A DNA stretch of 47,977 nucleotides from Terriglobales bacterium (GTDB lineage: Bacteria > Acidobacteriota > Terriglobia > Terriglobales > Acidobacteriaceae). The DNA lies in NCBI GenBank assembly GCA_035999525.1, contig DASYGR010000089.1, positions 1 through 47,977 of the forward strand. The letters are read 5' to 3'. Positions 12,499 to 37,001 of this stretch are shown here, piece by piece. A program made the position numbers and the translations under genes. Every line of letters begins with the position of its first letter. Within the stretch, counting starts at the first letter, position 1. The notes under the pieces were generated by a model that made no database searches, had not been told where the DNA came from, and saw only the letters and a program-made list of their open reading frames with translations.

Positions 12499-13011
12499 AG
12501 ACCTTGCCTCGCATCCAAATCGAATTAAGAGCGCTCCGAAAGGTTTACCGCCCGGGCCAAGGTTACTGCCCGCGGCATGTTCGGCATTACCTTCTCAGAG
12601 CCTGCAAACAATTAAGCAAGGCAGTAGCCAATTGCAAGGTGGTTTAGATTGAGAAGACTGGGCGACTCTCGCGATTGGTGCGCAGGAGAGGCGGAGGCGA
12701 CAGAGGAAATCATTTTCCCTTGAGAGAAAACGATTCGAGCGCCTAACTGCGGGACGTAACGTTACGAAGGTAATCGTGCGGGAGAAAGACGGCGATGGCT
12801 GACAAAAGTGTTACCGACGATCAGAGAAAATCATTCGGATTGCCTCGCAGATGTAAGATTGACAATACAGACGGATCGCGGAACTTTAACGGGGTCATAG
12901 CTCGTCTGCGGGATCTAATTATTGCGCGGAGGTTATTCCCGTCGAACACTTTTATATTTGGAATCGCACGCCATTCGTCGAGATCCCAGAGTGTGCCCCG
13001 CAATACCGGAA

Positions 13012-14385
13012 ATGATGAGATCAGACTTGATAACAGGTAGAGAACCGGTGGCAGCCCCGGCACGACCGTTTACGGTCAACGCTCTTATAACAAGCCAGGA
13101 GCCTTCCAACGCGGCGTTCACGTGGCTTTCCGCTTTTTATGTAGTCTATTGTGCCCGTCCTGAGGATTGGATTCCGGGGTTGAAATACATTCCGCTGGCC
13201 AAGATCTCGGTTTTTTTCGCTCTTGCTGGATTGATGGTCGCGGCGGGAAAAACCAAGCGTAGGTATAAAGATCTTCCAAAGGAAGCCAACTATCTTCTGG
13301 CCTTGATCGCCATATTGTTTGTGTCAGCAATATTCTCTCCCGTCTGGAAAGGCGGAGCGGTTGTGCACACGCTCGATTTCGCCAAGGTTTATGTGGTGTG
13401 GGTGCTCACTTTTCTGGTAGTTACAGATTTCAAAAAATTGAGACGCATAATTTTTGTGCAGGCTGGTTCCGTGGCCGTCATTGCCGTGGTTTCAATCGCG
13501 AAGGGCTATTCTCATCCGCGGCTGGAAGGGGTTCTGGGGGGCATTTACGGGAATCCTAACGATCTCGCCTTTGCGATTGTCCTCTCGCTTCCGTTCTGTC
13601 TCGCTTTCTTGATTAGTGCGAAAGGCGCGCTAAAGAAGTTGTTGTGGGCTCTGGCTATGTTAGTGATGGCAGCTTCTCTGTTTCTGACGGCTTCGCGTGC
13701 CGGATTCATAGATCTGGTTATCGCTGGAACCGTTTGTTTGTGGCACTTCGGAGTCAAAGGCAAGCGTCCATATTTGATTGTGATCGCTCTCGTTCTAGGC
13801 GCGTTGCTGATGGCCGTCGCTGGGAGGCAGTTGAAGGACCGGTTTACGGCAATGTCCGGTGAGGACTTGAACACGAGCATCGAGGGGAAAGCCTACACCT
13901 CCTTCGAAGCGCGCCAGATGCTGATGCGCCGTGCCGTGGAAGGGATCGAGCATTACCCAATATTGGGTGTTGGCGTGAACAACTTCATGAGTATTTCAGG
14001 GGACTGGCACGAGGTTCACATGACCTACCTCGAGATTGCTGTCGAGGGGGGTATTTTTTCGTTCGTCCTTTACCTCATGTTTTTCAGCCGGGGATTTTCA
14101 AACCTCCGAAGACTAAGACGCAGGCGAGACCTCGACACTCAAAGCACGCTATTCGCGGGAGCCCTGCATAGTTCGCTGATTGGTTTTGCCGTTGGCGCCC
14201 TTTTTGCGCCTGAAGCGTATCAGTTCTTCCCCTATTTCGCCGTCGCATATACATCGGTTCTCGCCATCATCATTGAGAACCAATCGAAAGAAGCGCTCAC
14301 TCTTGAACCAGCGGATATGGTTCAACAGCCACTGGATAAATATGCACGTCAACCAAGTCCAAGCTCCCGCATCGCGCGACTCTAA
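13012..14385 (+). CDS. O-antigen ligase / Wzy-type polymerase family (Wzy_C) polytopic membrane protein
   Basis: The protein has at least 10 hydrophobic segments. LTASRAGFIDLVIAG and HEVHMTYLEIAVEGGIFSFVLYLMFF match the characteristic Wzy_C loop and helix motifs. The start is uncertain: the track ORF starts at TTG 12922, and ATG 13012 is chosen here. Confidence 0.75.
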   Translation: MMRSDLITGREPVAAPARPFTVNALITSQEPSNAAFTWLSAFYVVYCARPEDWIPGLKYIPLAKISVFFALAGLMVAAGKTKRRYKDLPKEANYLLALIAILFVSAIFSPVWKGGAVVHTLDFAKVYVVWVLTFLVVTDFKKLRRIIFVQAGSVAVIAVVSIAKGYSHPRLEGVLGGIYGNPNDLAFAIVLSLPFCLAFLISAKGALKKLLWALAMLVMAASLFLTASRAGFIDLVIAGTVCLWHFGVKGKRPYLIVIALVLGALLMAVAGRQLKDRFTAMSGEDLNTSIEGKAYTSFEARQMLMRRAVEGIEHYPILGVGVNNFMSISGDWHEVHMTYLEIAVEGGIFSFVLYLMFFSRGFSNLRRLRRRRDLDTQSTLFAGALHSSLIGFAVGALFAPEAYQFFPYFAVAYTSVLAIIIENQSKEALTLEPADMVQQPLDKYARQPSPSSRIARL

Positions 14386-14471
14386 CTCGCGATCGCCGCA
14401 AAGAAGCTGGATGAATTTGCATTTGTGTTGCGGTGATATCCGGTTTAGGTAAAGGGGAGAATTTTCCGCGG

Positions 14472-15647
14472 ATGAGTATTTCGGTCAAGCTGACTTATGG
14501 CGCCAGGTGGTTGCCTAATTATTTGTGGCAAAGGATGCACCGAAACGCCAATTCCAGACCAGTCCATTTGATCATTGCTCTGGCTGACCACTTTGAGCCA
14601 TCGGTTCTTCCTCATCAGGGCGCCTCGCCCGTTCCGCTCGAAATGCAAGAACGCAAGCTCGAAACTTGGTGCCAGGATTATCCCCAAGCCGTAACTCAAT
14701 GGCGAGACGCCGAGGGCTATCCCCTTCGGCATACTTATTTTTATCCTGCTGAACAATATCACAAGGACTTGATTGATCGGCTGGCTCAACACTGTTCCGC
14801 GGGATGGGGAGAAATCGAGATTCATCTGCATCATGGAATAGGCACTCCCGATAGTTCGGAAAATGTCCGCCGCCAGTTGCTCGAGTTTCGAGACGCCCTG
14901 GCCACCCAGCACGGATCTCTCTGCTACATGGATGGCCACGGTTCTCCGCGCTACGCCTTCGTTCATGGAAACTTTGCCCTGGCTAATTCTGCGAGGGACA
15001 TAAATTGCGGTGTTGATAGCGAAATACAAGTGCTTGCCGAAACCGGCTGCTATGCCGATCTCACGCTTCCGACTGCACCTTTTCATCCGGGTCAAGTTGG
15101 GAAAATAAACTCGTTGTACGAATGTAGCCTTCCGCTGAACACCCGCGCTGCTCATCGCAGAGGCCGCGATTTAGAGCGCGGCAGGACACCCAAGATTTTC
15201 CCGCTGATGGTGCAAGGCCCGCTTCTTCCGGACTTTCATCCGAAGGGCCGACGCTGGCTAAGTATTGAGAATGGCGCTCTGACCAAGCCGAACCCTCCAA
15301 GCCTGCATCGGCTGCGGTTGTGGAAACGGGCAGCCGTTCGGGTGGAAGGCTGTCCAGACTGGCTGTTTATAAAGCTGCACTGCCATAGCATGGATTCGAC
15401 GCAAGAAGATGCTGTATTGGGATCTTCAATGCAACACTTCTTGCGGGAACTGGTGGAAGGGGCGCCGCAGCGAGATGAGACGATTCACTTCGTCACTGCG
15501 CGCGAAATGGTGAATATTGTCCTCGCGGCGTGTGATGGGCGGGAAGGCAATCCTGGGGACTATCGTGAGTATCGCCTGAAAAGAAATGTCGCGACTTCGT
15601 CTTCTGCGGCTGAGAACAAGTCTTCGCAAGCCCTCGTGCGAGGATAG
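14472..15647 (+). CDS. Hypothetical protein, possibly a divergent polysaccharide deacetylase-like (CE4-type) metal-dependent fold
   Basis: The 391-aa ORF has AGGGGAG upstream. ALADHFEP, EIEIHLHHG and FVHGNFALANS resemble the Asp/His metal-binding motifs of deacetylase-type barrels. I cannot place the family without an HMM search. Confidence 0.45.
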   Translation: MSISVKLTYGARWLPNYLWQRMHRNANSRPVHLIIALADHFEPSVLPHQGASPVPLEMQERKLETWCQDYPQAVTQWRDAEGYPLRHTYFYPAEQYHKDLIDRLAQHCSAGWGEIEIHLHHGIGTPDSSENVRRQLLEFRDALATQHGSLCYMDGHGSPRYAFVHGNFALANSARDINCGVDSEIQVLAETGCYADLTLPTAPFHPGQVGKINSLYECSLPLNTRAAHRRGRDLERGRTPKIFPLMVQGPLLPDFHPKGRRWLSIENGALTKPNPPSLHRLRLWKRAAVRVEGCPDWLFIKLHCHSMDSTQEDAVLGSSMQHFLRELVEGAPQRDETIHFVTAREMVNIVLAACDGREGNPGDYREYRLKRNVATSSSAAENKSSQALVRG

Positions 15648-15704
15648 AAGGTACGTGGCGGAGCCCGAAAATTCGACGTTACGCAATCGGGTAGGTAGAG
15701 CTTC

Positions 15705-16676
15705 ATGCTGCGATTCGGAATATTCAAACCGGACCAATACGTACGGGCATGTGACGATAAGCGCATTCCGAGATCGCGCGTGTCTCTCGTATCCTATGAT
15801 CTTCTTAATGTCGGCGATGAGCCTACCGCAGAGCAGATCCAGATCTTCGAGGAAATAAGCCGTACGTTACGAACTTCAAACGGAACCTACCGGACTACCT
15901 TTTCCAACCGATTCCATGATTTGGACGATGTAGCAATCCGGTGGATAAAGAAATCTTTTTCCGGCGCCATTGAACTCCGAGTGCAAGACCGGGCTGCCTC
16001 TCATGCGTTGACTTCCCTGGAGTGGGCTTTAAAACTATTTCCACTTTTCCCCCTAGCCACATTTGAGGCGTCTGACAGTATGTTCAGCCTGGTTAAGCTG
16101 TCGTTGAATACTGGCGGGGCTTATGTTCTTGAGCCTCACGGCCACCCGCTTCAGTATATAAAGTGGCCTTTCGTTGTATCCCTGCAACGCCGGGAGTCCT
16201 GGCGATACCCGATCAACCGTCTCATTGCTGCTGGTGCGAAGCGGCGATTTAACCGGCTTCCGCTGCCCGAGGAGTGGATGGAGTCTACAAATGGAGCGAA
16301 TCATCGAGTCAGTACGATTCCCTTCGTTCATCCCAAAGCGGTGCAATACAGCAAAGAAAATGCCAGGTTCCAGTTGCAGACCCGATCTGTGTTTGAGCAT
16401 CTTCCCGAGTCGTGTCATGTATTACGTACCATGAACATCTTGAACGCGAGTTATTTCTCTGCCGACCAGCTGGTTGAAGGAATCAAGGCAACTTTCGACA
16501 GCCTTAAGCCGGGAGGCATCTGGATTGTTGGGCGAACGCTTGAAGAGGATTTCAGCAATCACGCCACCCTTTTCCTAAAGCAGCAGAGTGGTTGGAGCGT
16601 TTTGGAGCGCCTCGGACGGGGATCAGAAATCGAGGAATTAGCGCTTCGTGTTCCGCCGGAGAATTCGCGCATTTGA
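15705..16676 (+). CDS. Hypothetical protein with a CheR-like / class I SAM-methyltransferase-like C-terminal signature
   Basis: CHVLRTMNILNASYFSADQLVEGIKATFDSLKPGGIWIVGRTLEE resembles the CRNVxIYF...L.PGG.L.xG.sE block of CheR-type methyltransferases. The motif-I equivalent (RVQDRAASHALTSLEWA) is degenerate. Confidence 0.45.
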   Translation: MLRFGIFKPDQYVRACDDKRIPRSRVSLVSYDLLNVGDEPTAEQIQIFEEISRTLRTSNGTYRTTFSNRFHDLDDVAIRWIKKSFSGAIELRVQDRAASHALTSLEWALKLFPLFPLATFEASDSMFSLVKLSLNTGGAYVLEPHGHPLQYIKWPFVVSLQRRESWRYPINRLIAAGAKRRFNRLPLPEEWMESTNGANHRVSTIPFVHPKAVQYSKENARFQLQTRSVFEHLPESCHVLRTMNILNASYFSADQLVEGIKATFDSLKPGGIWIVGRTLEEDFSNHATLFLKQQSGWSVLERLGRGSEIEELALRVPPENSRI

Positions 16677-16696
16677 CGGGGCAACTCACAAACAAA

Positions 16697-18991
16697 ATGG
16701 AAGAAACTATTCCACATCACCTGAACGGTGAAGCGAGTCTAATTGATCCGCCTGAGGCATCTCTTCCTGGTGTCTTCCTGATGAATGACAGTTTTCAAAC
16801 GGGTGGCAGCGAACGTCAGTTCGTCGCGCTCGCTAAGTCTCTCGATTCATCTCTTTTCCGCGTGAATCTTGGCTGCATTCAGAGGCGAGGTGCGTTCCTT
16901 GAAGGGCTCGGGGAAGTGCCGCAGTTTGGATTGGGCGGCAGCCTGTATGGTTTGCAGTCAATCCGTGCACGGTTTAGGCTCCGCCGCCATTTACGTGCAT
17001 TGAATGTTGGCGTCGCCCACGCATTTGATTTCTACACAAACCTGACGCTGATTCCGGCAGCTCGGATCGCAGGAGTCCCGGTCGTGATCGGGAGCCAGCG
17101 TCAACTTGGCGACTTGCTAACTCCCGCGCAGTCCCGAGTTCAAATGGAAATGTTTCGCTGGAGCGACGCCGTGGTTTGTAACTCCCGCGCTACCGCGGAA
17201 ATACTTGTGAAACGAGGTCTTCGGGAAAGTCGCGTAGTGGTGATCGGAAACGGTCTCCATGAATCATGTTTCGCAGAAACCACGCCGGCGATTTCAAAAC
17301 AGCATGGAACTCTACGCGTAGGCATGATCGCAAGAATGAATAGCGTGGCGAAAGGCCACCGGAATTTTATTCGTGCAGCCGCGCAGATTCGGAACGAGCA
17401 TGAACGCGTGGAATTTGTCCTGGCTGGCGACGGTCCCTTGCGTAAAGAACTGGAGCGCTACGCAGATGAACTTGGTCTCGCTGGCAGAATTCTTTTTCTT
17501 GGAGACCGCCGGGACGTTCCAGCCGTACTGGCATCGCTCGATGTTTCCGTAGTGCCTTCGTCATCCGAGAGTTTATCCAATGTAATTATCGAGTCCATGG
17601 CAGCTGGTGTGCCAGTTGTGGCTAACCGGGTGGGTGGAAATCCGGAGTTGATAGATGAAGACCGCGGAATCTTGGTGAATGCTGGCGACGATCAAGCTTT
17701 GGCGAATGCGATCGAGCGATTACTGCGAGATGCCATGATGCGCCGGCATATCACTGAAAACGCGCAGCGGTTCGCAAAGGCAAATTTTACGATTGATCAA
17801 ATGCGACGCCGGCACGAGGCATTGTATTTCGAATTGCTTGAACAAAAGAGCTGGCGCCGTGGTGCACATGGCTTTAAGCGCTCCTCCAAAGTGCAGCGGA
17901 AACGGGTGCGCGTGGGAATCGTCGCTGCATCACTACGTTACGTTGGCGGGCAGGCTGTTCAAGCAGACTTATTGCTGCGAAACTGGCGGAACGATCCCGA
18001 GATCGAAGCCACTCTTATTCCGATTGATCCTGCCTTTCCTCGCGGACTTGCATGGGTGGAACGCTTCCCATTACTCCGCACTATTGTGCGTGAGCCCGCG
18101 TATCTACTAGCGCTTTGGCGGGAATTGAAAAAGGCTGACGTGGCGCATATCTTCTCAGCGTCTTATTGGTCATTTCTAATCGCGCCGGTGCCGGCCTGTC
18201 TTATGGCGCGGGCGCTAGGGAAAAAGGTTCTCATTCATTACCACAGCGGAGAGGCGAGAGATCATCTTCGCCGCTTTCGAACCACAGTTCCGGTTTTGAA
18301 GAAAGCTGATGCCCTGATAGTTCCGTCTGGATATCTGGTGGACGTTTTCCGGGAATTCGGATTGAGCGCAAAAATCGTCCCCAATTTCGTGGACACATCA
18401 CAATTTTCGTTTCGTCTCAGAAAGCCTTTACGCCCTCATCTCGTGTGCACCCGAGGCTTCCATCGGTATTACGGAATTGATGTGGTCGTGCACGCTTTCG
18501 CGGAAATACAACAAGCCTTTCCGGACGCGAGTCTGGACCTCGTGGGTGGGGGACCTCTGGAAACCGAAATCCGGCTTTTGGTAAGGCAATTAGGTATTAC
18601 CGGCATAAATTTTGCCGGGGTGGCATCACGGGATCAAATCGGACGATATTATGAGCGCGCTGACATTTTTATTAATGCTTCCCGCCTGGACAATATGCCA
18701 GTCTCTATCCTCGAAGCATTCGCATCCGGGACGCCGGTCATCAGCACTGCTCCTGAGGGCATGCGATATCTTATTGACCACGAGCGCACCGGATTGCTTT
18801 CAGAGCCAGGCAACCCTCAAACTCTGGCACAAAATGTTATTCGTGTGTTAAACGATTCTGAATTGGCGTCACGATTAGCCGTCAATGCGCATGAGGAGTT
18901 GCAACGCTATTCGTGGGAAGTAGTTCGGAAGCAATGGCTGGACGTCTATTATTTGTTAGGTAGAGAAACCTCGCCGAGCGGACAACGTTGA
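16697..18991 (+). CDS. Tandem GT4-GT4 fusion glycosyltransferase (two complete Glycos_transf_1-type modules)
   Basis: Module 1 spans about 16697..17850. It has NDSFQTGGSERQ and an EX7E motif, ESLSNVIIE, followed by AAGVPVVA. Module 2 spans about 17905..18991. It has RVGIVAASLRYVGGQA and DNMPVSILE (DX7E), followed by ASGTPVIS. ATG 16697 lies 20 nt after the previous stop. The track ORF start at 16592 overlaps the upstream gene. Confidence 0.85.
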   Translation: MEETIPHHLNGEASLIDPPEASLPGVFLMNDSFQTGGSERQFVALAKSLDSSLFRVNLGCIQRRGAFLEGLGEVPQFGLGGSLYGLQSIRARFRLRRHLRALNVGVAHAFDFYTNLTLIPAARIAGVPVVIGSQRQLGDLLTPAQSRVQMEMFRWSDAVVCNSRATAEILVKRGLRESRVVVIGNGLHESCFAETTPAISKQHGTLRVGMIARMNSVAKGHRNFIRAAAQIRNEHERVEFVLAGDGPLRKELERYADELGLAGRILFLGDRRDVPAVLASLDVSVVPSSSESLSNVIIESMAAGVPVVANRVGGNPELIDEDRGILVNAGDDQALANAIERLLRDAMMRRHITENAQRFAKANFTIDQMRRRHEALYFELLEQKSWRRGAHGFKRSSKVQRKRVRVGIVAASLRYVGGQAVQADLLLRNWRNDPEIEATLIPIDPAFPRGLAWVERFPLLRTIVREPAYLLALWRELKKADVAHIFSASYWSFLIAPVPACLMARALGKKVLIHYHSGEARDHLRRFRTTVPVLKKADALIVPSGYLVDVFREFGLSAKIVPNFVDTSQFSFRLRKPLRPHLVCTRGFHRYYGIDVVVHAFAEIQQAFPDASLDLVGGGPLETEIRLLVRQLGITGINFAGVASRDQIGRYYERADIFINASRLDNMPVSILEAFASGTPVISTAPEGMRYLIDHERTGLLSEPGNPQTLAQNVIRVLNDSELASRLAVNAHEELQRYSWEVVRKQWLDVYYLLGRETSPSGQR

Positions 18992-19034
18992 CGAAGATCC
19001 TATCGCAGGCGTGACGCTGAACCTGTTTCTGTTT

Positions 19035-20012
19035 ATGAAACCACCAATTTTCATCGTGGGCTGTCCACGGTCAGGAACGAGTTTTCTTTATCATCTCCTG
19101 CTTTCAGCAGGGGGATTCGCTAAGTTCCACACTCAAATGAATGTCTTCGACGTTCTTGAGCCGGTTTATGGCGATCTCCAACTGATTAAAAATAGAAAAC
19201 AAATGATGCGGGACTGGCTCCAGAGCAAGGCATTTCAGGTTTCTGGACTGGATCGCGATGAGATCGAACGGAAAATTTTATCGGAATGCCGGAATGCGAG
19301 CGACTTTCTTAGAATTGTGATGAGGGAGATCGCACAAAAGCAAGGAGTGGATCGTTGGATTGATTCCACCCCAACGAATGTTCCGCACATGCTGCGAATT
19401 CAGCAGGATTTCCCCGATGCTCTTTTTATTCACATTATTCGCGATGGGCGGGACGCTGCTTTGTCGCTGGATAAACATGGATGGAGCCGACCGCTCCCTT
19501 GGGACAAAAGCAACGGGGTGCTTGCTGCGGGATTGTACTGGGAATGGATTGTACGCAAAGGCAGAGCCTCCGGAACGGCGCTGGGCTCGCATTACATCGA
19601 AATTCGCTATGAAGATCTAGTAGAGAAACCTGCGGAAGAACTCCGGCGATTAGGGAATTTCATACAGCGTGATCTTGATTATGATCGCATTCAACAAGCC
19701 AGTGTAGGCTCCGTCAAGAAGCCTTTGACGTCTTTCAAAGAAGATTTGAACGAGGGCAAATTCGCACCGGTAGGTCGTTGGAAGGTAAAGCTTTCGCCCG
19801 AACAATTAAGTTGGTTCGAAGCCCTCGTCGGCAATTACTTAAAAGAACTTGGATACGTTCTGGGCGGTAAGGCTCTTATCGATCACAGCGGCGCGATCCG
19901 GAGAAAGCGCCTGGTCTATAAGAACTTCTACGAATTTAAGCAGTGGGCGAAGGTAAATACTCCGCTCTCGCGCTGGACGCTCAATTACGCAGCCATCTTG
20001 ATTGATAAATAA
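19035..20012 (+). CDS. Sulfotransferase family protein (PAPS-dependent type), copy 1
   Basis: IFIVGCPRSGTSFLYHLL is a 5'-phosphosulfate-binding-loop-like motif, and LFIHIIRDGRDAALSL is a 3'-phosphate-binding-like motif. An alternative GTG start lies at 19011. Confidence 0.85.
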   Translation: MKPPIFIVGCPRSGTSFLYHLLLSAGGFAKFHTQMNVFDVLEPVYGDLQLIKNRKQMMRDWLQSKAFQVSGLDRDEIERKILSECRNASDFLRIVMREIAQKQGVDRWIDSTPTNVPHMLRIQQDFPDALFIHIIRDGRDAALSLDKHGWSRPLPWDKSNGVLAAGLYWEWIVRKGRASGTALGSHYIEIRYEDLVEKPAEELRRLGNFIQRDLDYDRIQQASVGSVKKPLTSFKEDLNEGKFAPVGRWKVKLSPEQLSWFEALVGNYLKELGYVLGGKALIDHSGAIRRKRLVYKNFYEFKQWAKVNTPLSRWTLNYAAILIDK

Positions 20013-20052
20013 GTCAATCCTTTACTTTTTCGGATTCTACATCCGAGGAATC

Positions 20053-21087
20053 TCAGCGTTCCAGTGCGGATAAATTCGTCATCATTCCTGCTGGAGTGTT
20101 GATTTTCACCCATCGCTTTACGGTAAGAAACGCCGGGAAAGTGTATTTCATGACCTTATCCCCAAGGCGGGGTTCTCTTTGATCAGGAGGTGTTGTCAAA
20201 GAATACCCTGAATTTTGCAGGCAATCTCCCACCAGCGTTTCGATGTCTGCGACTTGCGCGGGCGACAAGCTCTCCTTCCAGCGATTTACCGGATTCTGCC
20301 GGCCCTCCATCTGAAACGATGAATTCGGTTCCCGCAATCTCCCCAATTTCGCAGCCTGAATTCGTTCGTAGTCCAAGTCGTGATCGAGGAAGGCGCTCAG
20401 CTTACGCAGGGCGTTCTGAGGCTCAGCGACAAGTTCCTCGAAGTTCACTTCAATGTAGTCATTTGGGATCGCTTTGCCGTTCTCTCTTCCTGCTTCAACC
20501 ATCCACTTCCAATACAACGCGGTTGCTCTTATGCTGCCGGATTTTCGATTCCACGGGAACGGCCGGAATTCGCCCATTTTCTTTAAGGAAAGCGCAATAT
20601 CGCGTCCATCGCGGACTATGTGAATAAACAATGCTTCTGGAATTTCAGACTTGATTTCGTGCATGTAAAGGACGTTATCCGGATCGTACACACCCCAGCG
20701 GGAAGCATTTTGCGAGCTTGCGATTTCATCCATCACAATACGGATGAATTCGCCGCCATTTTTCGCTCCAGCGAGTAAATTGGTAGATAATTTCCCGGCA
20801 TCAAGCCCGGATCGGCGAAACCCCTTGCTTCGAATCCATGCCTGAATAACACGCTTTCGATTTTGTATCTTGTTCAAGCTGCCGAAGCGCGGGATGAGCA
20901 TCTTATGGATCGGCAAATATCCCCGGTAAATTGCAAACCCGCCCGCAGATAACAATGTGTCATAGAGGAGGTTTGTTCCCGAGCGATGACATCCAACTAC
21001 AAAAACGGGACATCGGCTTCGCGCGCTTGAGAACGAGTTTTGCTGAGAATACATGAATGAGGGTTTTGACAGAGACGTTATAGACAC
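20053..21087 (-). CDS. Sulfotransferase family protein, copy 2 (paralog of 19035..20012)
   Basis: It contains VFVVGCHRSGTNLLYDTL and LFIHIVRDGRDIALSL. By eye it is colinear with copy 1 over the whole length, for example LDYDRIQ/LDYERIQ and VGRWKVKLSPEQ/VNRWKESLSPAQ. Confidence 0.85.
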   Translation of the reverse strand: MSITSLSKPSFMYSQQNSFSSARSRCPVFVVGCHRSGTNLLYDTLLSAGGFAIYRGYLPIHKMLIPRFGSLNKIQNRKRVIQAWIRSKGFRRSGLDAGKLSTNLLAGAKNGGEFIRIVMDEIASSQNASRWGVYDPDNVLYMHEIKSEIPEALFIHIVRDGRDIALSLKKMGEFRPFPWNRKSGSIRATALYWKWMVEAGRENGKAIPNDYIEVNFEELVAEPQNALRKLSAFLDHDLDYERIQAAKLGRLREPNSSFQMEGRQNPVNRWKESLSPAQVADIETLVGDCLQNSGYSLTTPPDQREPRLGDKVMKYTFPAFLTVKRWVKINTPAGMMTNLSALER

Positions 21088-21112
21088 AATTCCAACAGCT
21101 GATCGTGCGTCG

Positions 21113-22918
21113 TCAAACTACTCCAGCAATTGCTTTTTCAATGCCCTCGACGTCGGCACCTATGTTCTTCCCATCCGATCCCTTTGCGAGGGCGGGAGAA
21201 GGCTTATTGCAATCCGCGCCATCGCCTTTTTCGCGACACAAGTGATAATCGCCGCCATGGCCTTCCTTGAAGTCGCGTAGTCCTGCATCGCGAGCATTCT
21301 TAAGGGAGATATTTCCACGTGGCCAAACACCGCCGCCAATGATCAGGTTATTTGTGAATATGGCATTAGAAAAACAATTCTTCAACAGGGAGTCAGGATC
21401 GTCCCGAGGTTGCGCACAGTTGGCAGGCCCTCCTCCTGCGCCTATCATCTGGCGCTCTCCAGCGCCGAAAATACTATTGGAAATCGTAAAGTCCTCGATC
21501 TTTGGTCCTTGGTTGAGTACCGACAAAACAGCGCGCTGCGGAAATGCCGTAACGTGGTCCAGGTGAACGATTTTTAGTGATGGAGCGACCGAAATTATCA
21601 GTGCAAACAACCCTGTGCCGTTGTACTTCTCGCCGTCAATGTCATCCACCAAAACATCGTGGATGCTATACCGTTCGCCATCCGCCGAAGGGGAATTCTG
21701 GCTTCCGGCTACGTTTGCGATGTTGAGCGCGCCGCCAACATGACGAATCAAATTGTAGCGAATGGTGACGTCCGTTACGCGACATTCAGGACAATGCCCT
21801 CCTTGATTGGCGGGAGTGAGGACGATTGAAAAGCCCTTCTGCGTAAAACCTCCCCAGCAGTTCTCGACCAGGTTGCCTTCAAATAGAACTCTTTGAGCAT
21901 TCTTGAGTTCGAAATTATTTTTTACAATGTAAGGATCGCCAGTATAGCCGCCCACAAAATCAGCCGAGCCGGGCTTCCAAATTAAAGGCTTGAAAAGATG
22001 ATTGCCGCGTATTTCTATATCTGCCGGCGTTGTGGTGCCTGGTGCGCCGCCGAACAAGATGCACTCTCCCGACGCCTCGAGAAAATTGTTAACGATCTTG
22101 TACGGGCCGCCCGGGGCGTCCCCTCCTCCCCCATTGATCGCCTGAGCATCCGTGCAGGATCCCTTGCGGGCAATGCAATGGAAATCGCTGAAGTACGAAT
22201 CAACGATCGCAACAAAGGTTGTGCCACTCAGGTGAATACCGCCTTTTGTCTCATCCTGAGGCGTGCCATGCAGCCATAGGCGGTCAAACACCAAGTGGTC
22301 GGCCGTATCCTCCGGATCTTTTGGCTGGATAAGATTGCGCATGTGCAGTTCAGGCTTCGCTCTTGTGACCTCAAGGCCAATCAAGCGGTAATGATTTGCG
22401 TGCGAAAGGAATAAAATCGGTCCCGAATCTCCATCGCCATCAAATTCAATTCTCGACATCACGTTCTGTGCCGAAGCACAGTGAAAATCAGGACGCCCAG
22501 GTAATGACGTTACACCGGCGTAGCAGGGGGAGATTCGCGTTCCTTCTGGGGGCAGGCTTTCATCCGAAGCGCCCGTCCGGATGATGATCCAATGCGAATC
22601 GTCACAAGGCTTGGCGGGCAAGCGAAACAAACCCCGAAAAGTCTTTCCCGCTTCCAGTTTTAGAGTATCTCCACACTTCGCTCCGTCAATCGCTTTTTGC
22701 AGGTCTTTGCTTTCGCGAATGTTAATCACCCGGCCAGACGCAGGGGTGAAACGTAGAGAGCTCTGAACGTACTGTCGGGGAAGTTCCGCCGGGCCATCAA
22801 ATCGGCTTGCGGGTGCCGGATCTTCACCGGCTTGAGCAGAATTCACAACTGTGCCGAGAAGAAGAATCAGACAGGAGAGAATCGCCATGGAGACGCCATT
22901 TCGTAAACTCATATGCAA
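21113..22918 (-). CDS. Secreted right-handed parallel beta-helix repeat protein (pectate-lyase-fold; candidate glycan lyase, hydrolase or epimerase)
   Basis: The signal peptide is MAILSCLILLLGTVVNSAQA. Repeated turns are seen in IVNNFLEASGECILFGG, IRGNHLFK, VKNNFELKNAQRVLFEGNLVENCWGG and IRYNLIRHVGGALNIAN. The gene ends 25 nt upstream of sulfotransferase 2. Confidence 0.65.
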   Translation of the reverse strand: MHMSLRNGVSMAILSCLILLLGTVVNSAQAGEDPAPASRFDGPAELPRQYVQSSLRFTPASGRVINIRESKDLQKAIDGAKCGDTLKLEAGKTFRGLFRLPAKPCDDSHWIIIRTGASDESLPPEGTRISPCYAGVTSLPGRPDFHCASAQNVMSRIEFDGDGDSGPILFLSHANHYRLIGLEVTRAKPELHMRNLIQPKDPEDTADHLVFDRLWLHGTPQDETKGGIHLSGTTFVAIVDSYFSDFHCIARKGSCTDAQAINGGGGDAPGGPYKIVNNFLEASGECILFGGAPGTTTPADIEIRGNHLFKPLIWKPGSADFVGGYTGDPYIVKNNFELKNAQRVLFEGNLVENCWGGFTQKGFSIVLTPANQGGHCPECRVTDVTIRYNLIRHVGGALNIANVAGSQNSPSADGERYSIHDVLVDDIDGEKYNGTGLFALIISVAPSLKIVHLDHVTAFPQRAVLSVLNQGPKIEDFTISNSIFGAGERQMIGAGGGPANCAQPRDDPDSLLKNCFSNAIFTNNLIIGGGVWPRGNISLKNARDAGLRDFKEGHGGDYHLCREKGDGADCNKPSPALAKGSDGKNIGADVEGIEKAIAGVV

Positions 22919-23143
22919 ATCTTTTCGCTATTTGGGCAATCGAAAAGCCGTTAGGCGCATACAACCGACGAAAAGCGATGATATCACCGCAAAATATGCA
23001 CTCGAAACGCCGAATGACTACCTGCCCAAATTGCGGATTCGATACTTGTGATTGTTGTCCTTTACATGCAATTCATATGCTATGATTTTTTCCTACGGTT
23101 GGGACCCCCCTCAGCAACCTTCCAGTAAATCTGCGCATGTCGA

Positions 23144-23989
23144 ATGAGGATTTCAATGAATTCAGCTCGGGCCATTTTTGCCTATACCCTCCTTGTGCTT
23201 TCCACAGCGACGTTCTCGGTGGCGCAACAACTGTACATTGCTAATGAGCCCAAACAAGAACTCATGAAGTTGGATTTAACTACCGGACTGCAAACCAACC
23301 TGTACCACATTGGGGAAGATCCCGATGACCTGATCGTGAACCCCCAAGGGCAGCTCATCTACTCGGTGCCAGGGACAGGAACCGTTTATCGCTATGATCC
23401 GGTGACAAACACGAATACCGTTCTGGTAAGTGGGCTCAGCTATGCCCGTGATTTAGTAATCGAACCGGGCGGTACCAGCATGCTGATTAGCTTGTACGCA
23501 CGAGGCGAGATCGCGCGCTTCAATTTCATTACAGGCACTACAACGATTCTTTCGAAGAAGCTGGGCACAAGTGACGGTATTGCATATGACGCCTCCGGAC
23601 ATTTGTTTGCGATAGCGAATCACAATACGGTTGTTCAGCTTGACCCGATAAGCGGAGCGGTTTTAAAAACTCTGGTGCTGGAGCTTCATCATGGGTCAAA
23701 TGGCGGCGATGGGATGACCTATGATAGCTATACGGGCCAGTTGTGGATTTCTCACGACGAGAAGGCCGAGGGTGGGCTGATCGAAGTTCCGACCGACCTT
23801 TCTGGATTTACTCTCTATCAGACCGGAAAACTCAATTACCCGGACGGAATCAAGTCAGATGGAAAGGGCAATCTATACCTTGGAGTGTTATGGACCGCAG
23901 TTGAGTACAACATCCCAAGCGATAAGATTACAAAAAGCTTTGTGGTGAGGGGCGCGGACGGCGTATCTCTTGTGCCCGGAACTTACTAA
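23144..23989 (+). CDS. Secreted beta-propeller protein (SMP-30/gluconolactonase/LRE- or NHL-like)
   Basis: The signal peptide is ...LLVLSTATFSVAQQ. About six blade-like units of roughly 40 aa follow (DDLIVNPQGQLIYS, ARDLVIEPGG, SDGIAYDASGHLFAI, GDGMTYDSYTGQLWIS, PDGIKSDGKGNLYLG). Confidence 0.55.
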   Translation: MRISMNSARAIFAYTLLVLSTATFSVAQQLYIANEPKQELMKLDLTTGLQTNLYHIGEDPDDLIVNPQGQLIYSVPGTGTVYRYDPVTNTNTVLVSGLSYARDLVIEPGGTSMLISLYARGEIARFNFITGTTTILSKKLGTSDGIAYDASGHLFAIANHNTVVQLDPISGAVLKTLVLELHHGSNGGDGMTYDSYTGQLWISHDEKAEGGLIEVPTDLSGFTLYQTGKLNYPDGIKSDGKGNLYLGVLWTAVEYNIPSDKITKSFVVRGADGVSLVPGTY

Positions 23990-24030
23990 CGCGACTACTG
24001 GCGGAAACATCCACGTTACGGTTGTATTCA

Positions 24031-24061
24031 GCTGTTGCGGCACTTTGCCTGCTGCGACAGC
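24031..24061 (+). terminator. Strong stem-loop downstream of the beta-propeller gene, without a U-tract
   Basis: A 12-bp stem with 2 G-U pairs runs GCTGTTGCGGCA (24031..24042) against TGCTGCGACAGC (24050..24061), with a 7-nt loop. It lies 42 nt after the stop and has no following T run. Confidence 0.3.
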
Positions 24062-24187
24062 CCCGCAGTTCAAATCCTTCCTTGAGTTTCTGGCCTCCGG
24101 GTCAGATTGCGGCAAAGCGGTTACACTATCCTGCTTGCCAATCAATAAAATCCGTAGCAACGTTATGTCGGCTTCGGCGAGGAGCGG

Positions 24188-25231
24188 ATGGACTTTATAG
24201 TTCTTAAGGAATTTCCTGCCGTACACGTTGAGCGTATGTGGCGAGATTGCTTGACGCGCGTCGAATTTCCTTCCCATTACAACGCGCCGGAATATTTTCT
24301 GGTGCCACTCTGGGCCGGCAAAGGACCGTTCGCGGTTCTCGCTTTGGACGGCGAAACAGTAACGGGAGTGCTGACGGGTTTGCGGACGGGAGGGGAGGTC
24401 AGTTGTGGCGTCGCGTCCCGGCCACAGATCAGCGTAGATCCCGAAAAAGATGTGAGTGCCACGCTTGATGCTCTGGCGCGTGGATTGTTGGAGGTCGCAA
24501 CCACCGCTGAGTTGATCACAGTTTATACATGGTCGTCACTGGAACTACCGGCATTCGCGGCGTGTGGGTTCAGGCACCGACGGCTTGAAGGCAGTGTAGT
24601 GCTGGACCTTACCCTCGGAGCCGAAGCGCTCTTCAAACAATTTTCAAAGGACCGGCGCAGAAATATCCGCTTCGCCGAAAAAAATGGGATTGAAGTGACG
24701 CTGGCGACGACGGCGGAAGACATTGCCGCAGCTTACGAAGTGTATGTTGCATGGCGGCAAACCGACAGGAAAACGGTTCAAGGAGAGACCAACACTTTTG
24801 AAGTTTTCGAAAAGTCAGCCCATCTTACCAACCGCATAATGCTGCTGGCCCGGCTCTCTGGAAAGGCAATCGCGATCAACATATTTCGATTTTTTCCGGG
24901 CGGATTGTTTGAGTCCGCGGCGAACAATTCCCTGGATGAATTCTTGCATCTCAAGCCCAATGAGTTGTTGCAGTGGCGCGGGATTGAATGGGCCTGCCAG
25001 CATGGAATGCAACGCCATTCCCTGGGTGGCGCACATCAATTCCTCCGCAGGTTCGGAGGAAATGTTGTCCCCATCTCACGTTACCGTCGCGATCGCACAT
25101 GGGCGCGAAAGCATGATCTGCGCGAGACAGTTCAAGACCTTAGCCGCGATGCCCTGAAGAAAATGCCGGCGCCTCTTGCGAAAACTGTGCGAAGAGCCTT
25201 CGGCAAAGATAAAGGCAAGAAGGACAAATAA
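24188..25231 (+). CDS. FemAB-like / BioF2-like GNAT-fold transferase
   Basis: FSKDRRRNIRFAEKNGIEVTLATTAEDIAAAYEVY and NELLQWRGIEWACQHGMQRHSLGGAH are characteristic of the FemAB-related acyl/aminoacyl transferase family. GAGGAG lies 4 nt upstream of the ATG. Confidence 0.65.
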   Translation: MDFIVLKEFPAVHVERMWRDCLTRVEFPSHYNAPEYFLVPLWAGKGPFAVLALDGETVTGVLTGLRTGGEVSCGVASRPQISVDPEKDVSATLDALARGLLEVATTAELITVYTWSSLELPAFAACGFRHRRLEGSVVLDLTLGAEALFKQFSKDRRRNIRFAEKNGIEVTLATTAEDIAAAYEVYVAWRQTDRKTVQGETNTFEVFEKSAHLTNRIMLLARLSGKAIAINIFRFFPGGLFESAANNSLDEFLHLKPNELLQWRGIEWACQHGMQRHSLGGAHQFLRRFGGNVVPISRYRRDRTWARKHDLRETVQDLSRDALKKMPAPLAKTVRRAFGKDKGKKDK

Positions 25232-25257
25232 GGTCAGCCTAAACGAGCGCATCCCAT

Positions 25258-25300
25258 GCCGCCATTTTCAAGAAATCCTTGAGGCGGTTTATTTCTTCTT
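25258..25300 (+). terminator. Candidate intrinsic terminator after the FemAB-like gene
   Basis: A composite hairpin reads GCCGCC-ATTT-TCAAG-AAATC-CTTGA-GGCGGT (25258..25288). It is followed by the T-rich tract TTATTTCTTCTT (25289..25300). Confidence 0.45.
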
Positions 25301-25438
25301 GGGCGGTTTTTTCTTTTCGCGTTTCGGCGCGTCTTTGTTTCCCATGCCCACAGTTTCCCATAGGATATGAAACTCCGCCAGTCCTCAGATGATTTCTCAC
25401 GCGTTTAATCATGTCATGATAGATTCTTCCATTCGAGA

Positions 25439-26299
25439 GTGTCCCAGGCTCCAGTTATCGGACACAGTCGCATTCGGGGAATTGATGTGACTAAGGTCGG
25501 AGTTTACCTGTATGGCTTCGCGTCAGCCGCTGTCGGCGTCATGGATTTTATCTGGGGCGACTTTGACACCTCCCATCAACCGATCCAGGCGTTCGGGGAT
25601 CACATTCCTGGTCGTGAGATCCTGGCGTATATCACCGCCGTGTGGATGATCGCAGGGGGCGTTGCGATTCTGTGGCGGCGCAGCGCTCGGGCGGGTGCAG
25701 CCGCGCTGGCCAGTATCTATTTCGTTTTTGCGGTGTTCTGGTTGCCGCGATTCTATACTGCGGCTCACTATCTTGGGTTTCGAATTTCCGTCGAAATCGG
25801 TGTCTTCGCGGGATTCGGTTCGCAGCTGATCGCGGTCGCCGCAGGAGCCCTCGTTTACAGCTCCCTGGCAGCTCAGAGTGCTTCATGGCCACGAACGATT
25901 CTTGTCGCTCGCTGGATATTTGGAGTCTGCTCAATAGCCTTCGGCTTGGGACATTTGACTTCCATTCAGGAAAACACCATTTACGTCCCCAGGTGGATGC
26001 CGGGAGGAGAGTTTTGGACCATCGTGACTGGAATTTGCTTCGTACTCGCAGGCCTTGCGATACTCTCCGGAATTTTAGACGTCCTGGCTGCGCGGCTGCT
26101 TGCGCTGATGTTTCTAGTCTTCAATCTAGTCGCATTGCCACCTTTCATCTTCGCCAATCCTCACCGCCATGCTGCCTGGGGCGGCAACGCCTATAACCTG
26201 GCTGCGGTGGCATCCGCGTGGATATTGGCCGCCTCCCTTGCGAATCGCGACACCCTGCCACAAAACGAGGCTAACGAGCAGCTTGCAGGGGTTTGTTAG
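25439..26299 (+). CDS. Hypothetical polytopic membrane protein (about 8 TM segments)
   Basis: The hydrophobic helices are regularly spaced (GVYLYGFASAAVGVMDF, ILAYITAVWMIAGGVAILW, and others). The GTG start is uncertain and I do not recognise the family. Confidence 0.55.
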   Translation: MSQAPVIGHSRIRGIDVTKVGVYLYGFASAAVGVMDFIWGDFDTSHQPIQAFGDHIPGREILAYITAVWMIAGGVAILWRRSARAGAAALASIYFVFAVFWLPRFYTAAHYLGFRISVEIGVFAGFGSQLIAVAAGALVYSSLAAQSASWPRTILVARWIFGVCSIAFGLGHLTSIQENTIYVPRWMPGGEFWTIVTGICFVLAGLAILSGILDVLAARLLALMFLVFNLVALPPFIFANPHRHAAWGGNAYNLAAVASAWILAASLANRDTLPQNEANEQLAGVC

Positions 26300-26318
26300 G
26301 ACATCTCAATATAGCGGT

Positions 26319-27947
26319 TCAGTTTTGTTCGCAGACAACCGTTCTCAACCTGGCCAAAGTCCATGCGAATGCTGCTAACGCGGCGCCCCAAAACAGGAAG
26401 GCAATTTTCACGACCCAGGCGGGAGCTTCGCCGACTCTCTTCAGCAGAAATGGTAGAAAATTCCAGGTGGTTATGTGAATGTAGTCCCACGGGTCTTCGG
26501 CCATGGCGTGGTTGTTCAGTCCCCACGCATCCATTTTGCCGAAGGCGAATGCAGCGATGTTCTTGACGCGAAGTGCGATGACAAACGTAGGATGGCCCAG
26601 AGTTTCCATCTGATAAATTTCCAACGGCAGCCAAAAAGCCAGGGAAGCAGTCTGTATGATCGTGCTCACCGATATGAGCACCATGCCGATTGCCCACACG
26701 AATCTTCCCAGTTCATGCCGGTATCGCAGCAACAGCGGTACCGAGATGAATGCCACCAATTCGGCCGCGGTTGAGACGTAGCGGTCTCCCCATGCGAAGT
26801 CGCCGCTCCACACTGTGTACTTCGCATAAAAGCAGATGTAGGCAAACAGTAGAAAAAATGCGGCGATCAAATACGATTTGATTTGCGGCGGGAATCTCTT
26901 CCAAGCAAGCACTACGATCAGTATCGTAAGCACCACAAGTGGGTCGAAGAGAAATATAGATTTCTCCGGGGCGAACAATGCACCGAAGAATCCAGCATGG
27001 AACGGCGTTTCGAATGGATAGTTCGGAGGGAGCGATGGATCCTGGAGCCGATGTTCCAGAGTGAAATAGTGGACGTAAGTGTTAGTGAACGACCCGAAAC
27101 GGTAGAACTGATAAAGGCGATCAATCAATAAAAATACCGCGTACACCGGCACTGTCGTTTTTAGATAAACAAGAGTTCGCTCCCACCATTGCTTCGAACC
27201 TGTCTGCTCAAAACAAAGGACAGCAATTAGAAAGACTGCTCCCGCAAGCAGATCGAGGCCTGTGGTAAGTCGAGTCAGCAGATTCAAGCCAAACGCTGTT
27301 GACCCAATCACCAGCGCTCGACGATTACCGCCGCGCAACCATTGATATTGAAATGCGAAACCAGTCAGTGTAAGCAGCTGGATGCAATTGTTTTCCATCA
27401 TGTTCTGGGTGTAGTGCAAGTGTGTAGTAGCGAACAGCAGAGCCAGAACTCCGGCAATGGACTGCCTAACACTGAATTCCAGCAGGCGCAGAAAACGGAA
27501 ACAGATCAGCGCGGTCAGTACATTAATCAGAATATTGGTGGTGTAACTGACGAAGATATTCCGAACACTTGGATCGTTGCCGTTATAGGTATCGAATACG
27601 TGCAACTTTTCAATATATGTGCCGATTATGTCGGCTGGCAACATGAGCAGCGGCTGGCCGATTCCATACCAGTCATAGAGCTTGCCTCCGCGGCCATGAG
27701 CCCCGAACTCCGGGTACTCTTGCGGAAAAACCGCTGGCTCCGAAGTAAAAAATGACGTCGCGGTCTGCAGGCGGTGCATAGTGTCGGCGCTGCCAAGTTC
27801 CCCAGACTGAACGACGAATGCGCCAACTGCCGCAGTGAGGCAGAGCAGAATTAAGGGGTCACTCAGCCAGCGGCGCAAAGAAGAAATCATGTGCCCGATG
27901 TTAAAGCACCCACGGCGAGACATCAAAGAACCCTGCAGCGACCGCAC
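26319..27947 (-). CDS. Large polytopic membrane protein, GT-C-type (ArnT/PMT-like) glycosyltransferase candidate
   Basis: The 542-aa product has about 12-13 TM segments with a long first extracytoplasmic loop. That architecture is typical of lipid-carrier-dependent glycosyltransferases, but I did not see a canonical DExxY motif. Alternative starts are ATG 27923 and ATG 27890. Confidence 0.45.
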   Translation of the reverse strand: MRSLQGSLMSRRGCFNIGHMISSLRRWLSDPLILLCLTAAVGAFVVQSGELGSADTMHRLQTATSFFTSEPAVFPQEYPEFGAHGRGGKLYDWYGIGQPLLMLPADIIGTYIEKLHVFDTYNGNDPSVRNIFVSYTTNILINVLTALICFRFLRLLEFSVRQSIAGVLALLFATTHLHYTQNMMENNCIQLLTLTGFAFQYQWLRGGNRRALVIGSTAFGLNLLTRLTTGLDLLAGAVFLIAVLCFEQTGSKQWWERTLVYLKTTVPVYAVFLLIDRLYQFYRFGSFTNTYVHYFTLEHRLQDPSLPPNYPFETPFHAGFFGALFAPEKSIFLFDPLVVLTILIVVLAWKRFPPQIKSYLIAAFFLLFAYICFYAKYTVWSGDFAWGDRYVSTAAELVAFISVPLLLRYRHELGRFVWAIGMVLISVSTIIQTASLAFWLPLEIYQMETLGHPTFVIALRVKNIAAFAFGKMDAWGLNNHAMAEDPWDYIHITTWNFLPFLLKRVGEAPAWVVKIAFLFWGAALAAFAWTLARLRTVVCEQN

Positions 27948-30421: not shown

Positions 30422-30638
30422 GTGGCCTCCTCTAAATTGTGATCTGAAGAAATCGCGAGCAGTATTCACCACTGCCGGCTTTATTGCAACATTTCCCTGA
30501 AAAATTCTAGGGGGAAAGGATGGTGGCATGAGACGATTGACTTCGTTGCGGGCCAAAGTTAGGTTTCGATGGTTCGGATGTCCGGTCAGAATGGCAGGCT
30601 GAGGAGAATTCTTCGATAGGGAAATAAGAAATAAGCTT

Positions 30639-34717: not shown

Positions 34718-34964
34718 ATCTGAATCGCTTCTGCCGGGGATGGGTCCCCTAGGCGAAATACACAATTCAGTGTCAGGAGTGCAGGTTGAAGGCCATTTGC
34801 AATGTATTGCAGGGATTGGGCTTAGGTCTTCGAGCGCATGCGCCTGTGAAATCATCTTCCCTTCCGAGCCAAGAATTGTTCTTACGGTACTGTGGTATGG
34901 ACGACAGGGGGATATGTCCAGTCAAGACCGAAACTTCTGCCGCGAAATGCTACATTGAGAGGTC

Positions 34965-36026: not shown

Positions 36027-36027
36027 T

Positions 36028-36972: not shown

Positions 36973-37001
36973 TACTTCATTTCGAAACTCCGTTCAAAAC
37001 A

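Follow-up and report, generated by a model that had tools for sequence, protein, structure and literature searches.

The subject of this study is a gene block for the assembly and decoration of a putatively sulfated exopolysaccharide (EPS), found on a 48-kb metagenome contig of Terriglobales (Acidobacteriota); the whole contig is called the window below. An initial annotation had pointed to a candidate EPS locus in the window, and our listing of open reading frames (ORFs) of at least 100 amino acids (aa) confirmed the positions of the genes that it had named. Nine of them, between positions 12922 and 25231, make up the block:

12922..14385, plus strand: Wzy_C-family membrane protein, polymerase or ligase (PF04932)
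14433..15647, plus strand: U404, predicted cytoplasmic (beta/alpha) barrel of the NodB/CE4-GH38-GH57 type, an unnamed family assigned by fold (probable start 14472)
15705..16676, plus strand: U323, CheR-like class I S-adenosylmethionine (SAM)-methyltransferase fold (Foldseek search with an AlphaFold2 model)
16592..18991, plus strand: GT4-GT4 fusion glycosyltransferase (PF00534, PF13692 and PF13439, twice each)
19011..20012, plus strand: ST1, sulfotransferase of the type dependent on 3'-phosphoadenosine 5'-phosphosulfate (PAPS) (PF13469, 94.9 bits; probable start 19035)
20053..21087, minus strand: ST2, sulfotransferase paralogue (PF13469, 85.5 bits)
21113..22918, minus strand: secreted right-handed beta-helix protein of 601 aa, closest to polysaccharide lyases of family PL6 (profile search)
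23144..23989, plus strand: secreted SGL/strictosidine-synthase-like beta-propeller (PF08450, 28.4 bits; cut-off 26.3)
24188..25231, plus strand: FemAB/GNAT-like (Acetyltransf_6) transferase (PF13480, 41.6 bits; PF02388, 26 bits)

The probable true start of the Wzy_C gene lies at 13012-13048, and the GT4-GT4 protein has about 765-772 aa when counted from its probable start at 16673-16697. From Wzy_C to ST1 the reading frames overlap or nearly abut, and the stop of U323 overlaps the start of GT4-GT4 by 4 nt. With two further genes on the right, positions 12922-27947 hold 11 ORFs rather than the 13 contiguous genes initially claimed. They fall into four strand blocks, in line with the four transcription units proposed: Wzy_C, U404, U323, GT4-GT4 and ST1 on the plus strand; ST2 and the 601-aa beta-helix gene, forming a module on the minus strand; the propeller, FemAB-like and DoxX-like genes on the plus strand; and the gene of a 542-aa membrane protein on the minus strand. 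A hydropathy scan gave about ten transmembrane (TM) segments in the Wzy_C protein, a signal-peptide-like hydrophobic segment at the N-terminus of the beta-helix protein and no hydrophobic segment in the locus enzymes; the signal-peptide-like N-terminus of the propeller was not flagged by the scan and is a reading of its sequence. In the region 18001-24000, where the sulfotransferase, beta-helix and propeller genes lie, the GC content is 0.495-0.513, against 0.52-0.56 in the remaining window; this low value over the sulfotransferase and beta-helix genes is compatible with an accessory cassette. The closest named relatives are metagenome-assembled genomes (MAGs) of Terriglobales, Acidobacteriaceae and Ca. 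Sulfotelmatobacter, and an identical FemAB-like protein is also encoded on JGI 3300035694 Ga0373489_0000049 and on JANRHI010030552.1 of GCA_025450795.1.

Synteny of the nine genes from Wzy_C to the FemAB-like gene extends to at least four independent contigs of Terriglobales. L006/L007, from a 1.15-Mb contig of GCA_963849315.1 (window-type locus at CAWKGT010000001.1, 370758-391735), has all nine in the same order (64-76% identity), L089 has most of them (69-86% identity) and L169 has the block without the propeller gene (69-86% identity), which we regard as accessory. On the left, the window shares an E1 dehydrogenase gene and a gene for a Big_2-repeat lipoprotein with L169 and L172, and the Big_2 gene holds the same position in L006. 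The right flanks differ (ClpB in L006, acyl-CoA dehydrogenase in L169, the genes of the DoxX-like and 542-aa proteins in the window), which puts the right end of the block at 25231, behind the FemAB-like gene. The '8-TM protein' and the 'GT-C-like 542-aa protein' of the initial annotation thus fall outside it: the former is a DoxX-like protein (PF07681) with about five hydrophobic segments, and both genes are absent from L006 and L169, so that synteny held for only part of the block first claimed. If the genes were unrelated neighbours without a common pathway, one would expect what is indeed seen in the two rightmost genes, and the window does lack several functions of a complete pathway; but the nine-gene synteny at 64-86% protein identity on independent contigs with differing right flanks, the overlapping or nearly abutting frames from Wzy_C to ST1 and the co-occurrence of the same families over dozens of loci leave this explanation hardly any probability, and we consider it ruled out by the synteny. 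The block is a real, conserved unit of glycan biosynthesis.

To place the block in a pathway, related loci were collected by a genome scan with the U404 alignment (80 loci with 10-kb flanks), their ORFs were clustered and the recurrent families were annotated. The usual order in Terriglobales begins with a Wza-like export protein (TIGR03027-like), a protein of about 500 aa, a chain-length determinant (TIGR03007-like) and an ATPase (TIGR03015-like). It continues with a tyrosine kinase (TIGR03018-like), a priming glycosylphosphotransferase (TIGR03013), a GT2 and a GT4 (stp1-like), followed by Wzy_C (sometimes with a methyltransferase after it), U404, an amidotransferase (TIGR03108-like) and GT4-GT4, fused or split. 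The variable end may hold a second amidotransferase, a heparinase II/III-like protein, a UDP-sugar dehydrogenase, a sulfotransferase, a FemAB-like protein, a MOP flippase and beta-helix proteins. Of the U404-anchored loci, 32 have Wzy_C together with the amidotransferase and GT4, and 20 of these also have at least three of five genes, namely those of the export protein, the chain-length determinant, the ATPase, the tyrosine kinase and the TIGR03013-type priming transferase. A sulfotransferase lies inside the 10-kb flank in 8 of the 32, and in 13 more the last recognised family is that of the amidotransferase, heparinase-like or dehydrogenase gene, upstream of the usual place of the sulfotransferase. 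The Wzy_C family was found in 41 related loci; the two GT4 domains are fused in 23 and encoded by two separate genes in others.

Two recurrent families of these loci, with examples at L010:769-2433 and L021:14291-15676, have no Pfam or NCBIfam match: the one just mentioned of about 500 aa, encoded in 22 loci between the genes for export and chain length, and another of about 460 aa with a signal-peptide-like N-terminus.

Since most relatives hold the orthologues of Wzy_C, U404 and GT4-GT4 contiguous with priming, flipping and export genes, the window carries a compacted and relocated repeat-unit half, split off from an XrtA/PEP-CTERM-type Wzx/Wzy EPS locus. The initial annotation had stressed a 'non-canonical composition' and had left open either a differently organised pathway or one split across the genome. 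Judged by the relatives, the locus is a rearranged half of a known type, and a split pathway is the simplest explanation of the missing genes, which are contiguous in most Terriglobales relatives. L172 (1-20999), from another Terriglobales MAG, is an intermediate between the window type and the complete type, with the flippase retained. At the same chromosomal site it has Wzx, Wzy_C, U323, an AsnB-type amidotransferase (frameshifted), two separate GT4 genes, sulfotransferases (including a third one) and two beta-helix genes; U404 is absent. We read this site, shared by L172 and the window, as a variable surface-glycan locus.

The XrtA/PEP-CTERM (EpsH-type) EPS loci are defined by the families TIGR03013, TIGR03007, TIGR03015, TIGR03018, TIGR03027, TIGR03087/03088/04063, TIGR03097, TIGR03108 and TIGR03019. 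The window resembles them in that its Wzy_C and both GT4 halves match XrtA-system families best and in that it encodes a PEP-CTERM protein; the relatives resemble them in holding export, chain-length, ATPase, kinase, priming, amidotransferase and FemAB-like genes in one locus. In contrast, the curated cut-off is reached only by TIGR03013, in a relative and not in the window (450.6 bits against 393.35 for the priming transferase); TIGR03015 (304 against 324.5) and TIGR03108 (689 against 817) come near theirs. The loci also differ in that the window is the repeat-unit half only, and that the sulfotransferases, U404, U323 and the PL6-like beta-helix protein stand outside the XrtA-system models matched. 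The PEP-CTERM protein at 34352-34855 suggests that the organism has an exosortase system, the gene for which would lie elsewhere in its genome.

The Wzy_C/O-antigen-ligase-like protein and the 765-aa GT4-GT4 fusion were both recognised correctly at the outset. In the former, PF04932 scores 57.7 bits (cut-off 31.7) and the repeat-unit polymerase model TIGR04370 only 19 bits (cut-off 40); both halves of the latter pass the Pfam GT4 thresholds, the N-terminal half being closest to TIGR03088 (stp2; 222 bits, cut-off 409) and the C-terminal half to TIGR04063 (stp3; 164 bits, cut-off 442). PF04932 is common to Wzy, WaaL and PglL, so that the Wzy_C protein might also be a ligase of the WaaL/PglL type or an oligosaccharyltransferase, which would place a short, sulfated and decorated oligosaccharide on lipid A-core or on surface proteins such as the PEP-CTERM protein or the Big_2 lipoprotein. 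The best NCBIfam match of the protein is indeed TIGR03097, the exosortase-A-associated 'putative O-glycosylation ligase'. Wzx and chain-length genes are missing from the window, a PEP-CTERM protein is encoded nearby, and the Ser/Thr-rich Big_2 lipoprotein is kept beside the locus in L006, L169 and L172. However, the TIGR03097 score of 72 bits is far below the cut-off of 188, the adjacency of Big_2 may only mark a rearrangement breakpoint, and in most relatives Wzy_C shares its locus with a chain-length determinant, a tyrosine kinase and a Wza-like exporter, which are typical of polymer export. We therefore consider a ligase unlikely, while giving it some weight, and treat Wzy_C as a probable polymerase.

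The two sulfotransferases with PAPS motifs were borne out by the models and by the alignment. ST1 scores 94.9 bits with PF13469 (cut-off 27) and 41 bits with PF00685 (cut-off 22); ST2 scores 85.5 bits with PF13469 and 20 bits with PF00685, slightly under the cut-off. They are paralogues with 44% identity, and ST1 has 3566 homologues. The 5'-phosphosulfate loop (GCxRSGT) and the 3'-phosphate motif (HIIRDxRDxxxS) do not vary among 18 sulfotransferases with 40-72% identity to ST1, and both have aligned counterparts in 4gox and TPST1. Both enzymes are probably cytoplasmic, because neither has a hydrophobic segment. Gene order and motifs together indicate intact sulfotransferases embedded in a glycan block. 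All five loci of the window type carry a sulfotransferase, and the pair of an ST2-like gene and a beta-helix gene on the opposite strand is also present in L006, L169 and L040, and in L037 as found by tblastn.

A separate scan of metagenomes with ST1 gave 80 orthologues (67-79% identity). Of these, 46 are surrounded by EPS genes, 27 occupy another conserved neighbourhood without polysaccharide genes, and the contigs of the other 7 are too short for a classification. In the EPS context the sulfotransferase adjoins a FemAB-like gene in 43 of 44 loci and a UDP-sugar dehydrogenase gene in 23. The 27 others, called the L008 type after the gene at L008:10001-10981 (for example L090, L096, L107, L121 and L160), are stand-alone sulfotransferases with about 83% identity to each other and about 70% to ST1. 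Their neighbours are PntAB, a HAD hydrolase and an S1/P1 nuclease in one direction and unannotated proteins of 151 and 241 aa and amino-acid permeases in the other. These enzymes might modify EPS in trans, or have a quite different target.

In profile searches of solved structures, the closest relatives were TPST1/TPST2 (E 6.5e-10), the CurM-type polyketide synthase (PKS) sulfotransferase, Stf1 and cytosolic SULTs, and a carbohydrate sulfotransferase was not among the matches; NoeE gave only a partial match of 26.6 bits, in the NCBIfam search. As the nearest solved structures are of the TPST and PKS types, the sequence alone does not identify the acceptor, and we infer a glycan acceptor for ST1 and ST2 from their genomic context. 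The enzymes could instead sulfate, for example, a tyrosine of a protein or peptide, a lipid or a small molecule, and merely share their location with the EPS genes; this would suit the structural relatives just named, the lack of a match to a carbohydrate-sulfotransferase family and the conserved non-EPS neighbourhood of the 27 orthologues. Against it, 46 loci place the sulfotransferase tightly between GT4 or UDP-sugar dehydrogenase genes and FemAB-like or Wzx genes, the ST2-type paralogue pairs with the PL6-like beta-helix gene, and no window-type locus is without a sulfotransferase. PF13469 is, moreover, a broad family that includes known glycan and glycolipid sulfotransferases. An acceptor other than a glycan therefore seems to us distinctly improbable, and sulfation of the locus glycan the better account.

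U404 and U323, which we flag as two sizeable families tied to polysaccharide loci, have no Pfam or NCBIfam model. For U404, no match was found in NCBIfam or in Pfam (tried to E <= 5), and sequence and profile searches against PDB gave nothing significant. The family has 1147 representatives at 50% identity, and in other bacteria its members are fused to Beta_helix/NosD, CE4 (PF01522), GT2 or hexapeptide-transferase domains. The AlphaFold2 model (pLDDT 90.6) matches best the Bombyx chitin deacetylase 5z34 (E 4e-5, TM-score about 0.5), followed by GH38, CE4 and GH57 folds. H40, H121, E184 and D196 are invariant in 40 aligned sequences, and D39, H120, H165 and H305 are kept in at least 90% of them, a pattern that we read as pointing to a metal-dependent hydrolase or deacetylase. 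The 'CE4-like' description thus holds for the fold, of the NodB/CE4-GH38 type, and is not supported for the family. Membership in CE4 was not established, as PF01522 was not matched even at E <= 5 and the conserved residues lie in DHFEP, HLHH and HGNW rather than in the CE4 motifs TFDD, H(S/T)xxH, RxPY, DxxDW and LxH. Since U404 occurs fused to a true CE4 domain, it is a distinct domain, and its family is a candidate new family of carbohydrate-active enzymes.

For U323, which is unannotated and has 596 homologues, Pfam gave only NNMT_PNMT_TEMT at E 0.21, and the profile search against PDB gave 1wzn at E 0.057 and nothing significant. The AlphaFold2 model (pLDDT 88.9) has 293 PDB matches at E <= 1e-3 in Foldseek, and the 50 listed are nearly all SAM-methyltransferases or proteins of that fold, including CheR1 (5xlx and 5xly). 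Large insertions keep the query-normalised TM-scores low (about 0.3). The stretches RAASHxLTS and MNIxNxxYFS are CheR-like in our reading of the alignment consensus. The CheR-like character assumed initially is therefore kept as to the fold only. In L170 and L171 (both 10001-10939), U323 homologues with 59% and 53% identity lie directly 5' of a GT4 gene with a 4-nt overlap. As the overlap recurs in these distant loci, U323 and GT4 appear to be a conserved pair, with predicted translational coupling in all three. Other loci encode a methyltransferase of 325-340 aa between Wzy_C and U404; that U323 might be a diverged form of it was considered and rejected (BLASTP E 1.6). One U323 homologue (P0321) carries hexapeptide-repeat domains (PF00132/PF14602), and the copy in L173 adjoins a transposase fragment, away from glycosyltransferases.

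The 601-aa beta-helix protein has no Pfam match even at E <= 5. Its family, with members in 21 related loci, matches in profile searches the PL6 alginate lyase 6kfn (E 3.5e-9) as well as BcAlyPL6 and AlyGC, over the N-terminal 40-110 residues only; the secreted beta-helix proposed initially is thus supported by this match and by the signal-like N-terminal segment, with the PL6 similarity limited to the N-terminal region. Lyases of the PL6 kind act on uronic acids. The propeller, also named initially, passes the SGL cut-off (PF08450), and its gene is present in L006 and L007. The FemAB-like transferase, with orthologues of 75-86% identity in L006, L089 and L169, is retained as such on the basis of PF13480 and PF02388; the PEP-CTERM-associated family TIGR03019 to which it might have belonged was not matched at E <= 0.01. 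It is not a close member of the FemAB-like family that adjoins the sulfotransferases in other loci, being only a distant paralogue (31% identity over the C-terminal 211 residues).

A more specific proposal is that Terriglobales, which rank with the most abundant bacteria of soil, commonly make a sulfated, uronic-acid-containing exopolymer like a glycosaminoglycan. In this proposal, U404 and the sulfotransferase would act as a pair resembling N-deacetylase/N-sulfotransferase, the beta-helix protein would be a lyase or C5-epimerase, and the UDP-sugar dehydrogenase and the heparinase II/III-like enzyme would be contributed by the related loci. We regard this as speculative and improbable. The UDP-sugar dehydrogenase in related loci by itself fits an acidic polymer.

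Taken together, we think it probable, with moderate confidence, that 12922-25231 is the half of an XrtA/PEP-CTERM-type Wzx/Wzy EPS pathway that assembles and decorates the repeat unit, separated from the half for priming and export and placed beside the E1 dehydrogenase and Big_2 genes. The individual biochemical steps, the sulfation acceptor and the site of the missing genes are what we infer from the gene content, as follows. A polyprenyl-phosphate sugar primer would be made by a TIGR03013-type transferase encoded elsewhere, and GT4-GT4 would extend it at the cytoplasmic face by two glycosyl residues. In the cytoplasm, ST1 and ST2 would add sulfate from PAPS to the lipid-linked unit, and U323, coupled to GT4, would add a methyl group from SAM. 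U404 would probably de-N-acetylate or otherwise hydrolyse the lipid-linked unit, and the FemAB/GNAT-like enzyme would probably acylate or aminoacylate it. A Wzx encoded elsewhere would flip the unit, Wzy_C would polymerise it, and a set of Wza-like, polysaccharide co-polymerase (PCP) and kinase proteins, also encoded elsewhere, would export the polymer. Outside the cell, the secreted PL6-like beta-helix protein and the propeller would trim or modify the polymer.

Several observations weigh against this interpretation, in addition to the stand-alone context of the 27 ST1 orthologues and the kind of solved structures nearest to ST1 and ST2. Pfam and NCBIfam searches of the ORFs of the 48-kb window found no priming transferase, Wzx, outer-membrane export protein (OPX) or PCP and no genes for PAPS synthesis, as the initial annotation had stated. 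An exosortase gene was seen neither among these ORFs nor among the gene families of the 80 U404-anchored loci within their 10-kb flanks. Most matches to XrtA-system families of NCBIfam are best matches that stay under the curated cut-offs. FemAB-like genes without a sulfotransferase occur in L020, L022 and L051, which makes the sulfotransferase a frequent yet optional module for decoration. The data are genomic throughout and come from MAGs and metagenome contigs.

Among known systems, the synechan xss cluster of Synechocystis PCC 6803 appears to be the closest proven analogue of the window locus. It encodes an EPS of the Wzx/Wzy type with two sulfotransferases of distinct subfamilies and several glycosyltransferases, one essential export gene (OPX) is located elsewhere in the genome, and the sulfation of synechan is chemically proven (PMC8205485). 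The window likewise has two sulfotransferases in a probable Wzx/Wzy-type cluster whose export genes would be encoded elsewhere. However, xss is close to complete, with Wzx, Wzy, a PCP and a priming glycosyltransferase, of which the window has only a Wzy candidate; xss also has its own regulators and belongs to another phylum and other gene families; sulfation is proven for synechan and predicted for the window. In Pontiella sulfatireligans F21, a putative cluster for a sulfated glycosaminoglycan-like EPS was described, the polymer being shown as sulfated by a dye assay and the cluster not being tested genetically (PMC7356697). It resembles the window in having a PF13469 sulfotransferase among GT2/GT4, methyltransferase and flippase-like genes, and its link to the polymer is likewise only correlative. 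Unlike the window, it has no Wzy_C, U404 and FemAB-like core and no XrtA-type relatives. The rhizobial NodH, LpsS and KpsS and the mycobacterial Stf enzymes share with ST1 and ST2 the same two PAPS motifs and, in the cytoplasm, carry out the PAPS-dependent sulfation of glycan or glycolipid precursors that is predicted for ST1 and ST2; Stf1 (2zq5) is a weak profile match to the window sulfotransferases. They show no close sequence relationship to ST1 and ST2, their substrates are Nod factors, lipopolysaccharide, K-antigen and trehalose lipids, and they act outside XrtA-type EPS loci.

To our knowledge, genetically defined sulfated bacterial exopolysaccharides are very few and have been proven mainly in cyanobacteria. 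The literature that was searched gave no connection of sulfotransferases with acidobacterial EPS or with PEP-CTERM loci. What appears to be new here is an XrtA-type Wzx/Wzy EPS locus with modules for predicted sulfation and other decoration, well supported at the genomic level. Terriglobales are a dominant group in acidic soils and peat, and an intact sulfotransferase family is a recurrent and tightly placed member of their main type of EPS locus, which suggests, on genomic grounds only, that common soil bacteria make sulfated slime. If the polymer is sulfated, the charge, metal-binding and water-holding of acidobacterial slime need to be reconsidered. Such a polymer would also be an unrecognised pool of soil organosulfur and a substrate for neighbours that bear sulfatases, and its genes would be candidates for the 'sulfated glycoconjugates' detected chemically in environmental biofilms. 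If the glycosaminoglycan-like proposal were true, sulfated EPS would be a widespread trait in soil.

The window has the following further genes around the block:

9778..12498, minus strand: Big_2-repeat lipoprotein of 906 aa, left flank, non-biosynthetic (PF02368, 10 stretches)
25439..26299, plus strand: DoxX-like multi-TM protein, neighbour only (PF07681, 26.7 bits)
26319..27947, minus strand: polytopic membrane protein of 542 aa, neighbour only (about eight hydrophobic segments)
34352..34855, minus strand: secreted protein of 167 aa with a PEP-CTERM tail (PF07589, 23.4 bits; cut-off 20.7)

The Big_2 lipoprotein, transcribed divergently from the locus, has a lipobox-like LAVMTAC near the N-terminus as read from the translation, and is very rich in Ser and Thr. 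Its orthologues (66-70% identity) have the same position in L006, L169 and L172 and adjoin the E1 dehydrogenase gene in the latter two; it may be a glycosylation target or a mere marker of a rearrangement breakpoint. The DoxX-like and 542-aa genes were seen only in the organism of the window itself. In the hydropathy scan the DoxX-like protein has about five hydrophobic segments. The 542-aa protein has no Pfam match even at E <= 5 and a weak match to the NCBIfam 'putative glycosyltransferase' LA_3751/3752 (29 bits, cut-off 200). The C-terminus of the PEP-CTERM protein is PEPSTLALFGTGLLMLGGLVRKRFAR.

Just downstream of the block are the genes of an aquaporin (MIP; 29660-30556, minus strand), a STAS-domain protein (30639-30977, minus strand) and a GH2 glycoside hydrolase (31090-33000, plus strand), which have no conserved linkage to the locus in relatives. 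Farther to the right, a heme-biosynthesis run (34965-38420, plus strand) consists of a URO-D-type hemE, confirmed with Pfam, and of hemH-like and protoporphyrinogen-oxidase-like ORFs as read from their translations. Also read from translations were a MurJ-like flippase of the MOP family (39417-41099, plus strand) and two large Ser/Thr kinase-like proteins (41108-46389, minus strand).

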